From Aphanothece sp. CMT-3BRIN-NPC111 (GTDB taxonomy: Bacteria > Cyanobacteriota > Cyanobacteriia > Cyanobacteriales > JAHHGU01), in assembly GCA_019359765.1 (NCBI GenBank), contig JAHHGU010000013.1:9574-73573 (forward strand): a DNA stretch of 64,000 nucleotides, written 5' to 3'. This document shows positions 44,967 through 49,446 of the stretch, piece by piece (position 1 is the first letter of the stretch; every line of letters begins with the position of its first letter). Both the position numbers and the translations under genes were made by a program. Below the pieces are notes generated by a model. That model was not told the origin of the DNA. It searched no databases and worked only from the letters and a program-made list of their open reading frames with translations.

Positions 44967-45161
44967 TTACGCGTACCTGAGGAATAGTTCTGCTTTATGC
45001 TGACCTATTTGAGGTGCTATCGCCACGATAGTTACCCGATGGCTATCAAAGAGAAATTCCGCATAGTCTATTAATGTATCCAGTCCAACGAGGTTTAGGC
45101 AGACTTCACAAGCTAGCCAAACTGTAATTTTTTTCAGGGTCTTTGTCCACGGCGCTTGCAT
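44967..45161 (-). CDS. Small hypothetical protein
   Basis: 64 aa. The WLACEVCLNLVGLDTLIDYAEFLF motif resembles a small family I recall as conserved in cyanobacteria. Confidence 0.4.
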   Translation of the reverse strand: MQAPWTKTLKKITVWLACEVCLNLVGLDTLIDYAEFLFDSHRVTIVAIAPQIGQHKAELFLRYA

Positions 45162-45304
45162 TATCTTAGTCTCCTCGCTTAAACCTCCTTGCTAAAAGTA
45201 AATACGATTAACTTCAATTCTTTATGCAGAAACGCTGACGGCAAGGGTGGAGGCTTAGACTGTTAATAGGAAATGTTGATAATTAAACAATTGCATCAAT
45301 TTTC

Positions 45305-45688
45305 ATGAATCAAACTGCTCAGGAACTGACGGCTATTGATGACAAGCTTTCTCAGCGTCATATTGACCTTGACCCCGGTGGCTATTTCATTATTTACTTA
45401 GATCGAGACGCGGGGCTAATTTGTGCTAAGCATTTCACCAATGTTATCGATGAGCGCGGTTTAGCCGTTGACCCAGAAACTGGCAAGGTTATCCCTGCAC
45501 GAGGTAAGGTGGAACGAACGCACACCACAGTTTTTAGCGGCAGAACTGCTAAGGAACTTTGCGTAAAGATTTTTGAGGAAACTCAGCCCTATCCCGTGAC
45601 TCTGCTGGATCATGCGGCCTATCTAGGACGGGAACTTGTTCGGGCTGAGATAGCTCTAATCAATGGGCAAGATTACGTTCAAGACTAA
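45305..45688 (+). CDS. DUF4346 domain protein
   Basis: DPGGYFIIYLDRDAGLICAKHF...HAAYLGRELVRAEIALINGQDYVQD. Confidence 0.65.
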   Translation: MNQTAQELTAIDDKLSQRHIDLDPGGYFIIYLDRDAGLICAKHFTNVIDERGLAVDPETGKVIPARGKVERTHTTVFSGRTAKELCVKIFEETQPYPVTLLDHAAYLGRELVRAEIALINGQDYVQD

Positions 45689-46407
45689 CCTTGATTTTGA
45701 TAAAGGAAGTAGGTAGCCATCGGGATAACGGTGGCGGCAATTAATAGCACAACTACAACGATAGTGGCGTTGCCAGTGTCGGTTTCTTCTGCGGTTTTAA
45801 AGGTGCTTTCTACCTGAACTTTGTCTTGCACTACAGGTGGGCCGGGATCGGGCTGACCAGATAATACAGCGACTAGGCGATCGCTGGCATCAGCAAACGC
45901 TTGATTATACTTGTTGCCCTCCCGGAGTGGCACCGCTACTGTCTCAGAAGCAACGCTATTGGCAATATCATCGGGCATGATGGACTTGACTGCCTCACCT
46001 GTGCGAATGCCAGTAGTGTTTGTGAGGCTATCAATTACCAGTAAGGTTTGATGCGCTTGCGCTTCTGGCGTCGGGAACCATTTATCAAATAGCTTATCTG
46101 TAAAGCTTTGGGCTGTTTCACCGTAGTCTAGGCGGTGAATCGTGACTATCCGAACTTCATTCCCGGTTTTCTGAGCTAAGTTCTCTAGGGCGCTGTTGAT
46201 TTTGCCTTCGTTAAGGCGGCTGAGAAGTTCAGCTCGATCGATCAGCCAAGTATCTTTGCCTGTGGTCAGGTTGGGCATTTGATAGACGCCAGTGGCACTT
46301 GCAGGCGTCGCTACCAGCTGCGTTACTAAAACTATCAACACCACTGGCAGCACCAGACGCCAGAGGTATTTTCTCCAGATGAAAATTTTGTTTAAGAGTT
46401 GTTTCAT
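45685..46407 (-). CDS. TPM-domain protein (Psb32/TLP18.3-like)
   Basis: N-terminal anchor, a TPM-like core (LIDRAELLSRLNEGKINSALENLAQKTGNEVRIVTI) and a C-terminal TM segment. Confidence 0.65.
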   Translation of the reverse strand: MKQLLNKIFIWRKYLWRLVLPVVLIVLVTQLVATPASATGVYQMPNLTTGKDTWLIDRAELLSRLNEGKINSALENLAQKTGNEVRIVTIHRLDYGETAQSFTDKLFDKWFPTPEAQAHQTLLVIDSLTNTTGIRTGEAVKSIMPDDIANSVASETVAVPLREGNKYNQAFADASDRLVAVLSGQPDPGPPVVQDKVQVESTFKTAEETDTGNATIVVVVLLIAATVIPMATYFLYQNQG

Positions 46408-46446
46408 TTGCTTGCTCTCAAAACTGCCTTTTTCCCAAAAATACTA

Positions 46447-46600
46447 CTTGACACTCCCCGGCGTAAACGCACGGGGATTCTTCTCTCTACGAGCCAACTT
46501 GCTCACGGCAGGTTTTCACCAACCAATGTAGGGGTCGATTCTCCAGAAGCGTTGCTCATGTTGACCATGAAAGTTCCGGTATGCCCTACCGTACTCAATC
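46447..46600 (-). ncRNA. Predicted omega-RNA (reRNA) of the tnpB element
   Basis: By analogy with characterised TnpB systems, the guide RNA would overlap the tnpB 3' end. It would terminate at the right-end hairpin GAATCCCCGTGCGTTTACGCCGGGGAGTGTCAAG (the + strand CTTGAC is at 46447-46452). The 5' boundary is a guess. Confidence 0.4.
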
Positions 46601-47678
46601 CCCGACTCAGGATGTTTCTCGCTGCGTTGTGATCTCTATCCAGCACACATCCACACTGGCAAGCGTGAGTGCGGGTGGAGAGGGACTTCTTAACCACAGT
46701 GCCGCATTGAGAGCATTCCTGACTTGTTCCGGCGGCGGTTACGGCAATGGTAATTTTTCCAAACACCTTGCCGAAGTATTCCAGCCACACTCGGAACTGA
46801 TACCAAGAAGCATCGTTAATACACTTGGCAAGACAGTGATTCTTCACCATGTTTTTCATCCTCAAGTCTTCGTAGACCACAACATCGTTAGATGTGATTA
46901 CGCACCTTGCCAACTTCACGGCATGGTCTTTACGCTGTCTACTTATTTTGAGGTGGCGTTTGCCCAGAATCACTCTGGCTTTCATCCTATTGTTAGAATT
47001 CTTAACTCGTCTAGATACAAGCCTTTGAGCCTGTCTTAATCGTCTCGCCCCCAAGCGTAGAAACCTAGGGTTATCAACTGTTTGAGCATTGCTATCGGTG
47101 TAGAAATCGTTAAGTCCTACATCTAACCCAATCGCATTGCCGGACGGTGCAATTTCAGAAGTACGAGCCACCTGAATACAGAACTGTACATAGTAACCAT
47201 CTGCTCTCTTCACCAGCCTGACTCGTTTGATTTGATGAGGCTGGTAGAAGTTTAAATCACGGGTTCCTTTGAGCTTGAGTCTGCCAATATTCTTCTTGTC
47301 AGTGAACGTGATTGAATGGCGATCGTCTGCCAGCTTCCATCCGCAGGTTTTATACTCGACTGAGCGGTTATCTTTCTGAAATTGTGGATAGCCCTTTAAT
47401 CCTGGGGTCTGTGATTTACAGTTCTCCAAGAATCTGCTAATAGCTGACCATGCCCGTTCAGCTGCGGCTTGACGGGCCATGCTGTTGAGTTCATTAACAA
47501 ACGGAAACTCTTTAGCCAATACCGCGCAATACTTGTTGAGATCGCTTTGAGACTTACCCAGTTGATCGAAAAAGAAGCGTAATGCTTTGTTGCGAATAAA
47601 CTGAACAGTTCTCAACGCCTCATCAATAGCGCTGAATTGGCTGGCTTTTCCGTAGGCTTTGAACTCCAGTACAATCAT
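46503..47678 (-). CDS. tnpB: TnpB RNA-guided endonuclease (IS200/IS605 family, IS1341-like); no tnpA
   Basis: RuvC motifs IGLDVGLND, VVVYEDL and DRDHNAARNI, plus the zinc ribbon CSQCGTVVKK...HACQCGC. The ORF is intact at 391 aa. Confidence 0.9.
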   Translation of the reverse strand: MIVLEFKAYGKASQFSAIDEALRTVQFIRNKALRFFFDQLGKSQSDLNKYCAVLAKEFPFVNELNSMARQAAAERAWSAISRFLENCKSQTPGLKGYPQFQKDNRSVEYKTCGWKLADDRHSITFTDKKNIGRLKLKGTRDLNFYQPHQIKRVRLVKRADGYYVQFCIQVARTSEIAPSGNAIGLDVGLNDFYTDSNAQTVDNPRFLRLGARRLRQAQRLVSRRVKNSNNRMKARVILGKRHLKISRQRKDHAVKLARCVITSNDVVVYEDLRMKNMVKNHCLAKCINDASWYQFRVWLEYFGKVFGKITIAVTAAGTSQECSQCGTVVKKSLSTRTHACQCGCVLDRDHNAARNILSRGLSTVGHTGTFMVNMSNASGESTPTLVGENLP

Positions 47679-47830
47679 GTTTTTATATGAGCATACCCAA
47701 TATAAAATTGTACTTTATGACGGGGTTTTAGACCCAAATTTCTGATAATTTTTTGTAAAACTAACTCCCGGTGGGGCGGACGTGTTACGTTGTAAAAATA
47801 AGCTTCTCATCGGTCTGGGTGGTGTCAGCT

Positions 47831-48070
47831 ATGAGTTCACCAGAAATTTATAAAGGTTGGCTCATTGAAGCAAGACCAGTGTTCTGCGTTCAGGTTTGGA
47901 GCGCAGGTGGCGAATGCATTATTCCCGTCCACAACGCTAAGACGGAAGAAGAGGCATTGATTATGGCAAGATACTGGATCGATCTGCAAATGTCATCGGA
48001 AGCTGGGCTGCCGCAGGATAGTAATGATGACTTGCCCAGCGATTTTGACGACGATGATATTCCATTTTGA
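47831..48070 (+). CDS. Hypothetical small acidic-tailed protein
   Basis: MSSPEIYKGWLIEARPV...DFDDDDIPF. The internal ATG at 47831 is preferred over the GTG at 47771. Confidence 0.35.
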   Translation: MSSPEIYKGWLIEARPVFCVQVWSAGGECIIPVHNAKTEEEALIMARYWIDLQMSSEAGLPQDSNDDLPSDFDDDDIPF

Positions 48071-48138
48071 TGCGGGACTTTAGCTGAGCCATTACCGATA
48101 TGGGGTGGTTCTGGTAGCCTCTGTGGGGCGGCTATGTC

Positions 48139-48206
48139 AAACGATTTTAGATTGACCTTGCCCTGCATAGTGGGACGAGGCTTGAACCCAATTATCACGC
48201 CGTCAA
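48139..48206. repeat. Dispersed repeat, copy 2 (partner at 31929-31993)
   Basis: See copy 1. Confidence 0.6.
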
Positions 48207-48423
48207 TGGAGACGCTATCCTTCGTAGAAGGCGATCGCACTTTGACCATAAACAAAAAAGGTCTCATACCAAGTTGCAGCCAAAACTGTAATTTTCAGCA
48301 GAACGGCAGAATAAAACAAATTTAGGCTTCTAAATACAAATTGGTATCAAGCGCCTGACTTTTAGTCGTGGGGACAATTCCATTATCCTCTCATCCAAAA
48401 TTAGATGACGCTGGCAAAATCAA

Positions 48424-49446
48424 TTATGTCAGACTCTTGGTAGCTATCAAGTGATTTACGTCTAATTCATTTGCACAGGGTTTTCCCTGTTCTACATCAT
48501 AAATATTATTAATTGTGGTTTCAGCGATATTTTTGATAGCGTTTTTAGTCAAAAAAGCCTGATGTCCAGTAATAATGACGTTGGGAAATGTCAGCAGGCG
48601 TTGAAAAACATCATCTTGAATAACCGAATTAGACAAATCTTCAAAGAACAAATCGGTTTCTTGCTCATAGACATCTAAACCTAGATAGCCGATTTTACCT
48701 GACTTGAGTGCCTGAATAACAGCTTTTGTGTCAATAAGCCCTCCCCGGCTAGTATTAATCAGCATGACACCATCTTTCATCTGACTCAGCGCCTGAGCAT
48801 CTATGATGTGGTAAGTTTCCGGCATCAGTGGAGTATGAAGCGTGATGATATCAGAGGTAGCTAAAAGTTCAGGCAATGCTACATACTTGACACCCAAAGC
48901 TTCACATTCTGGGTTAGGAAAGGGGTCATAAGCCAGCAGGTGACACCCGAATCCTTTGAGAATATTGGCTACGATAAAGCCAATTTTGCCAGTACCGATA
49001 ATCCCCACGGTGCAGCTATGTAAGTCAAATCCTAAAAGTCCTTCTAGGGAAAAATTGCCTTCGCGGATGCGAGCATAAGCACGATGGATTTTGCGGTTGA
49101 GTGTCAGAATTAGCGCGATTGTATGTTCAGCAACTGCATAGGGTGAATAAGCTGGAACTCGCACAATTTTCATTCCTAGTTCAGCAGCAGCAGCCAGATC
49201 TACATTGTTATATCCAGCACAGCGCAGGGCAATTAAGCGAGTTCCGCCAGATGCCAATGCGCTCAAGGTCTGCTTATCCAGTTGGTCATTTACAAAAACA
49301 CATACGGCTGGAAATCCTGAAGCTAAAACACTTGTTTTACACGTCAAATGCGGTTCAAAGAAAGCCAACTCATGTTTATTTTCTGCATTAGCGGCTTCGA
49401 GAAACTGGCGATCGTAGGATTTGGTACTAAAAACAGCGACTTTCAT
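48424..49446 (-). CDS. ldhA: D-lactate dehydrogenase (D-2-hydroxyacid dehydrogenase)
   Basis: Collinear with E. coli LdhA as I recall it: [12 protein letters not shown]..., [14 protein letters not shown], and HQAFLT near the C-terminus. Confidence 0.85.

Follow-up and report, generated by a model that had tools for sequence, protein, structure and literature searches.

A tnpB-only insertion sequence lodged in the predicted psb32 promoter of Aphanothece sp. CMT-3BRIN-NPC111

The photosystem II repair gene psb32 of the cyanobacterium Aphanothece sp. CMT-3BRIN-NPC111 lies directly downstream of a transposable element that encodes TnpB, a predicted RNA-guided endonuclease. The arrangement was analysed within a 64,000-nucleotide stretch of contig JAHHGU010000013.1, here called the window, and all coordinates are window positions. 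The preferred account, to which we assign a probability of about 0.8, is that a tnpB-only insertion sequence (IS) inserted in the psb32 promoter, that its nuclease and guide-RNA module has remained intact while its left end has decayed, and that psb32 is still transcribed. Taken alone, the insertion is a routine one for an IS. It provides a natural example with the target-adjacent motif (TAM), left guide, omega-RNA and guide all mapped, and it exposes a deeply conserved putative core of the psb32 promoter. In what follows, G numbers denote genomes (G000 being the source genome), C numbers contigs, and L numbers extracted loci.

The element and its insertion site

The element occupies positions 46448-47744 (1297 bp). 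Its sole open reading frame (ORF) is tnpB, at 46503-47678 on the minus strand, which is full length and encodes 391 amino acids. No tnpA was found within or beside the element. Judged by this gene content, it is of a known kind: within the IS200/IS605 family it falls in the IS1341 group, whose defining layout is tnpB only (PMC13565253). An earlier annotation of this DNA, referred to here as the preliminary description, had also reported the absence of tnpA. This holds for the element and its surroundings, but two Y1 transposase genes are present elsewhere in the genome, on contigs C46 and C70. The tnpA on C46 belongs to a complete related IS605-type element, with a TnpB 57% identical to the one described here and a near-identical right-end module.

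The downstream gene, previously called Psb32-like, is psb32 itself (45685-46407, minus strand). Its product scores 351.9 bits against the NCBIfam equivalog NF047379 (cut-off 160) and 91 bits against the TPM domain PF04536, and the translation contains a C-terminal hydrophobic stretch. The gene is intact and single copy in the genome. It has the same orientation as tnpB, and the distance between the element and its ATG, earlier estimated at about 40 bp, is exactly 40 nt (46408-46447).

In G002, G013, G014, and G031, psb32 adjoins orf80, a small divergent gene, and tnpB is absent between them. These genomes share the order DUF4346 gene, psb32, orf80, with a lactate-dehydrogenase-type gene next in G002. 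The intergenic regions of L022, L024, L027, and L031 align with both flanks of the element in G000. Because four relatives keep the empty psb32/orf80 site, the tnpB element is a real insertion, as the preliminary description had proposed, and it entered a divergent intergenic region of about 126 bp, leaving 40 nt up to the ATG of psb32 and 86 nt up to that of orf80.

The ends of the element were left partly undefined by the preliminary description, which gave neither the left end nor the TAM. The two comparisons it recommended have supplied both: other tnpB copies in the genome defined both ends, and the uninterrupted locus in relatives gave the empty site, the ends, and the TAM. On the right, alignment of six copies with their flanks shows homology stopping after ...GAATCCCCGTGCGTTTACGCCGGGGAGTGTCAA, which places the right end at base 46448; the last bases shared with five paralogous copies are ...GGGGAGTGTCAA. 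The earlier prediction of a right end at GTCAAG was accurate to within one base, as the element ends with ...GTCAA at 46448 rather than at 46447. On the left, homology among paralogs starts with TTAY-CAGAAATTT-GGGTCT-AAAR-CCCC. The junctions are TTAT/CAGAAA... on the left and ...GTCAA/GTAGTAT on the right (the slash marks the boundary), with neither terminal inverted repeats nor a target-site duplication.

The TAM is TTAT (47748-47745, minus strand), which is target DNA and not part of the element. When the flanks are joined without TTAT, a gap of exactly 4 nt appears against the empty sites L027 (...GTTTAT/GTAATAT) and L031, and with TTAT retained the relatives' empty sites are colinear. Across the left ends in G000, the TAM pairs with a left guide tetranucleotide in four classes, TTAT with AAAA (8), TTAC with AAAG (8), TCAT with GAAA (3), and TGAC with CAAG (3), with few exceptions. 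Base 2 of the TAM covaries with base 1 of the left guide, and base 4 with base 4 (for example in L002, L003, L006, L014, and L016). The boundary was set after TTAT because of the 4-nt gap and this covariation. A 5-nt TAM, TTATC, was rejected, since the gap and the covariation register favour TTAT; the spacing in distant relatives (9-11 nt) does not decide between the two. The four TAM classes would suit studies of TnpA and TnpB specificity.

These features resemble those of IS608 from Helicobacter pylori, which inserts 3' of the T-rich tetranucleotide TTAC and whose right end terminates in TCAA, as here. In IS608, experiments have established that TTAC is read by an AAAG tetranucleotide 5' of a subterminal hairpin, and the element has no inverted repeats and makes no target duplication (PMC3201880). 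The same rule is followed in G000, with AAAG in copies of the TTAC type and AAAA in those of the TTAT type. The present element differs from IS608 in that it lacks tnpA, uses TTAT as its TAM, and has a degenerate left hairpin. The distance from the TAM to the consensus left hairpin is about 21 nt here and 19 nt in IS608; on the right, the cut lies 8 nt past the hairpin here, whereas TCAA lies 10 nt from the hairpin in IS608.

The left end (47700-47744, minus strand) reads CAGAAATTT-GGGTCT-AAAA-CCCC, in which AAAA is the left guide (G_L, 47729-47726), and is followed by a degenerate hairpin remnant (IP_L). The sequence is conserved in the C41, C53, and C38 paralogs, and TnpB elements less closely related to this one keep it too. 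The right-end module (46448-46480, minus strand) consists of GAAT (46480-46477), a hairpin CCCCG..CGGGG (46476-46456), AGTG, and the terminal TCAA (46451-46448). About 40 similar modules in the genome show covariation in the hairpin. These modules (GAATCC-hairpin-GGAGTGTCAA) are dispersed, and many have no TnpB gene nearby. The genome also contains an element of about 384 bp resembling a miniature inverted-repeat transposable element (L018:1510-1893; G000:C87:30977-31360), which has a TCAT-type left end and a right-end/omega-RNA tail and lacks tnpB.

The insertion can be envisaged as follows. A Y1 transposase acting in trans would have inserted the single-stranded element directly 3' of TTAT, a target that lay inside the putative psb32 core promoter, 1 nt upstream of its -10-like box. 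The junctions show that no target duplication arose.

TnpB, the omega-RNA, and the guide

The TnpB protein matches OrfB_IS605 (81.6 bits) and Cas12f1-like_TNB (66.2 bits) in Pfam, and scores 249.9 bits (cut-off 100) against guided_TnpB, the NCBIfam model of the RNA-guided endonuclease TnpB family. It aligns end to end with ISDra2 TnpB (PDB 8BF8/8EXA/8H1J; E 1e-31) at about 30% identity. The preliminary description had called the gene intact with all RuvC motifs, and the alignment bears this out: the catalytic D-E-D residues are present in GLD186VG, YE270DL, and LD347RD349HNAARNI. The zinc-ribbon motifs that it had also listed are in place. The first knuckle is the usual C-x-x-C (C322SQC, C322 to C325), but the second, C340-Q-C342, is a C-x-C, one residue shorter than usual and different from that of ISDra2 TnpB. 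The same C-x-C occurs in intact multi-copy TnpB relatives from G000, G002, and G013, and because of this the short knuckle is read as a trait of the clade, not as damage. The nuclease is thus apparently intact, and RNA-guided, TAM-dependent cleavage is predicted by homology.

The source genome (87 contigs) yields about 49 TnpB matches, the closest on C41 (73% identical) and C53 (72%), and no copy in it is nearer than 73%. Against these closest paralogs, the proportion of nonsynonymous differences (pN) is 0.18-0.20 and that of synonymous differences (pS) about 0.75, which is saturated, so the ratio records long-term constraint only and is not assignable to the branch of this copy. The protein ends in ...ENLP followed by a stop codon (46503-46510), which is created by an extra G relative to C41 and C53; the frames of these paralogs appear from the alignment to continue for about 5 codons before stopping, and the difference looks trivial.

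The tnpB 3' end and the right end overlap a predicted omega-RNA scaffold (46448-46596, minus strand; the 5' limit is a minimum). The last 230 nt of 12 copies from G000, G002, and G013 were aligned, and the consensus fold (RNAalifold) has 44 pairs, 29 of which show compensatory double changes. Pairing is maintained in 94.7% of alignment cells, against 77% in shuffled alignments and 30-46% with slid partners, and 0 of 500 shuffles reached the observed value on any measure. The supported helices span 46596-46448, including the right-end hairpin. A fifth, long-range helix lacks covariation and is not claimed. The overlap with the 3' end of tnpB and the extension of about 16 nt into the flank are as in the omega-RNA (reRNA) of ISDra2, while the RNA sequence is unrelated to that of ISDra2 and outside all Rfam models; the ISDra2 TAM, TTGAT, also differs from TTAT. 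A scan of 45000-49000 against Rfam at E values up to 1 matched no omega-RNA family. The sole match in that scan, a sub-threshold DUF3800-IX at 45575-45652, was taken as chance.

From the right-end position, the guide is predicted to be GTAGTATTTTTGGGAA (46432-46447, minus strand), the first 16 bases of flanking DNA, with the length borrowed from ISDra2. The preliminary description had placed a guide of about 16 nt in this flank; the location was right, and the guide begins one base earlier than proposed. It would coincide with the -10 region of psb32. The 16-mer occurs once in the genome, and neither a TAM-adjacent copy nor a near-match of it was found there. Such uniqueness is expected of an element whose guide is its own flank.

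The function of TnpB and its RNA in a mobile element can be gauged from ISGst2 of Geobacillus stearothermophilus, whose TnpB (GstTnpB) recognizes the TAMs TTTAT and TTCAT, resembling the TTAT and TCAT classes here (Meers et al., PMC10055086). GstTnpB cuts the scarless donor joint and thereby retains the element (PMC10055086). The ISGst2 elements are from a Firmicute, carry tnpA, and have demonstrated activity, whereas the present element is known from its sequence. By homology, in the mobile state TnpB and the omega-RNA would cut the excision joint TTAT + GTAGTAT..., and recombination would restore the element. Both are still encoded today, with the omega-RNA scaffold ending at the right end and predicted to continue into the flank as the guide.

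Decay of the left end

In sister copies, the AAAR tetranucleotide of the left end is followed by a hairpin, CCGTCC-loop-GGACGG, usually with a T-run next. Other copies contain compensated variants of the stem (CCGCCC/GGGCGG and CCGCTC/GAGCGG), and with DNA parameters the sister hairpins have folding energies of -4 to -8.3 kcal/mol. The copy beside psb32 reads GTCATAAAGTACAATTTT and folds at only -0.2 kcal/mol, as its 3' arm has four substitutions that change GGACGGC to GTACAAT. This loss is restricted to the present copy and a few others. Of the two subterminal hairpins, the right one is therefore intact and covarying, and the left one, seen in sister copies, is destroyed.

By analogy, CCGTCC..GGACGG would be the hairpin that TnpA must bind. 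In IS608, the guide tetranucleotide lies just 5' of the transposase-binding hairpin (PMC6006769; PMC3201880). Excision of ISGst2 requires intact left and right ends as well as complementarity between the TAM and the left-end guide, and it is abolished when an end is scrambled (PMC10055086). Because the left-end hairpin is destroyed here, and IS608 and ISGst2 need such ends, the element has probably lost the capacity for excision and is stranded and immobile. The TAM and the left guide tetranucleotide are still there, while the hairpin has decayed. The lack of any copy more than 73% identical and the saturated synonymous sites fit a stranded copy. The nuclease and guide-RNA half is without visible defect, in contrast to the left end, so that the claim of the preliminary description that the element is potentially active would apply to that half and not to excision. 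If so, the nuclease and guide-RNA module has outlived the transposition module.

The alternative that the element is a fully mobile IS, excised and re-inserted by the Y1 transposase of C46 or C70, is unlikely. It draws on the intact TAM, left guide AAAA, right-end hairpin, terminal TCAA, and tnpB, together with a related tnpA in the same genome. Those intact parts must be set against a left-end arm with four substitutions and almost no folding energy, a defect of the kind that kills excision in ISGst2 (PMC10055086), and against the want of a second copy above 73% identity, by which recent transposition is not indicated.

The psb32 promoter after insertion

Upstream of psb32, most of 49 named cyanobacterial loci, among them those of Nostoc, Calothrix, Aulosira, Umezakia, Stenomitos, Leptolyngbya, Pantanalinema, and Potamolinea, share a core of the form (G/A)TAGTAT-TTT(T)-GG at a distance of about 33-39 nt from the start codon. 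Many further relatives also have it. The motif was noted in the psb32 upstream regions of L024, L025, L027, L030, L031, L033, L036, and L078-L125. The hexamer, TAGTAT or TAATAT followed by TTT(T)GG, is at a constant distance from the psb32 ATG in most loci examined. In the present copy TAGTAT occupies 46441-46446 (minus strand) and starts 1 nt after the right end of the element. Its fit to TAnnnT and a distance from the ATG that suits a short leader suggest a -10-like box. The core is conserved across distant families beyond what a bare -10 box needs and may include a regulatory or discriminator element. The core is absent from L023 (G020) and L077 (Crinalium sp. MAG), where heptamer repeats (TTGATAA/TTGTTAA) in a run about 90 nt upstream of psb32 take its place.

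Alignment with the empty sites shows that the upstream half of the psb32/orf80 intergenic region, with its conserved ACGTAACACGTCC and GTTTTAC blocks, is now at 47749-47830 (minus strand). Two blocks have thus been moved 1.3 kb upstream: TTTTAC, about 10 nt upstream of the -10-like box, and T(T/G)A(G/C/A)TT, at a -35-like spacing. Both are conserved among nearer relatives only. The right end supplies a poor replacement for the -35 region, reading TTTACG with a 15-nt spacer. A match to an RpaB HLR1-type or NtcA-type site in the displaced block was loose and is not retained, and a search of the literature for the psb32 promoter brought up no relevant paper. The preliminary description held that psb32 had been separated from its native promoter. 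This appears to be half correct: the promoter would be split, not removed, with the upstream half displaced and the TAGTAT core retained in the 40-nt gap.

The same description suggested that psb32 is expressed by read-through from the element. No terminator-like site was found between tnpB and psb32 on the minus strand, so read-through is possible. On the minus strand, the scan of consensus promoters and terminators was empty around both the gap and the start of tnpB, and its counts equal the shuffled expectation, so it is informative only for the statement that there is no obvious terminator. The gene has kept its -10-like box, 5' leader, and intact coding sequence and would have lost the upstream promoter half. 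It is now probably transcribed by read-through from tnpB and the omega-RNA, along with weak initiation at the retained -10 box, for which the right-end DNA would serve as upstream sequence. There is an even chance that read-through is the major of these sources.

A different outcome, in which the insertion silenced psb32 and left an unexpressed gene heading for decay, is improbable. The displacement of the upstream half of a conserved promoter by 1.3 kb is in its favour, and psb32 is dispensable in Synechocystis under low light. However, the coding sequence of this only copy is full length, with an equivalog score of 352 bits; the gene also keeps its -10 box and leader, and read-through is unblocked. 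The decay of the left end also suggests that the insertion is not brand new.

The account of a psb32 gene still transcribed beside a stranded element with a working nuclease is itself weakened at several points. The empty sites are all from other families of the same order, and as excision is scarless, the element may in principle have been lost from them. The C-x-C zinc knuckle is presumed functional, and the assignment of the transposase hairpin is built on the IS608 analogy and covariation among copies, with 2 bases between AAAA and the stem. The ends of the omega-RNA, the read-through, and the identity of the -10 box are predictions from sequence.

A further possibility is that the element has been exapted as an immobile cassette, donating a promoter to psb32 or regulating it in the manner of TldR, with the guide lying over the -10 box. 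TldRs no longer have the catalytic residues of RuvC, and their linkage to target genes is stable from strain to strain. The present protein is likewise of the TnpB family with a guide over a promoter, but its RuvC residues are intact, its guide is merely the insertion flank, and relatives are without the element. A domesticated regulator of the TldR type was rejected on the presence of the catalytic residues and the absence of the element from the syntenic sites in G002, G013, G014, and G031. Exaptation in the broader sense is highly improbable: the guide does equal the conserved -10 core, the left end has decayed while tnpB, the omega-RNA, and psb32 stay intact, and G010 has an unrelated TnpB element, likewise oriented, at this position. 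Yet every IS200/IS605 insertion automatically acquires a guide matching its flank, the match at the occupied site is preceded by GTCAA and not by the TAM, so that TnpB should not bind it, the selection signal (dN/dS, the ratio of nonsynonymous to synonymous rates) cannot be placed on this branch owing to the saturation of dS, and the arrangement is missing from the four syntenic relatives and, in the junction scan of 401 genomes, from 399.

The G010 case deserves description beside the insertion of G000. In G010, a genome of another family (Psb32 64% identical), a contig starts in the 3' end of a different TnpB gene (...NADLNGAANILKK...; L028:1-225, G010:C480, with psb32 at 261-965). The right end of this element, ...GAATCCCCGTATTTCAATGCGGGGAGAGGTCAA, stops 35 nt before the psb32 ATG, against a -10-like AATAAT and in the same orientation, so that the two TnpB insertions lie within 1-2 nt of the same spot. 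A second copy, 99% identical, on G010:C392 indicates that the G010 element was recently active. On its left flank no orf80 homolog was found in G010, and as the contig breaks inside the IS, the TAM is not readable. In G035 (L026:1-141, G035:C202), whose psb32 and orf80 do not share a contig, a third related right end and omega-RNA tail (...GAATCCTCGCACTTATAGGGCGAGGAGTGTCAA) precedes psb32 by about 500 nt in the same orientation.

The pattern scan for a right end joined to the psb32 core covered 401 genomes of the order and found the junction in G000 and G010. Among the other matches, those that could be placed (30 + 9 loci) are without psb32, and the rest are unlike the core. Next to the core, a right end is likewise missing from all 49 named loci. 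A general TnpB hot spot at the psb32 core was rejected, as the recurrence amounts to two cases among 401 genomes, which plausibly arose because some lineages have a TTAT immediately 5' of the -10 core. It is very unlikely that the core is a recurrent IS200/IS605 landing pad at which an immobile cassette is retained because tnpB and omega-RNA transcription drives or modulates psb32; were it so, IS200/IS605 elements would repeatedly rewire a photosystem-repair gene at its -10 core. The two independent insertions offer a natural test of how much of the promoter psb32 requires.

On the far side of the element, orf80 (47831-48070, plus strand) is a small conserved gene divergent from psb32 that encodes 79 amino acids from its ATG. 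Its start is probably this ATG at 47831 rather than the GTG at 47771, as alignment with homologs starts at MSSPE. Homologs stand beside psb32 in several families (L022, L024, L027, L031, L078, L085, and L091), and the ORF read from 47771 to 48070 has no Pfam or NCBIfam match. At its other end, psb32 meets a convergent PterinBD-DUF4346 gene (45305-45688, plus strand), and the two share 4 nt at their stop codons (45685-45688). This pairing is kept in most relatives.

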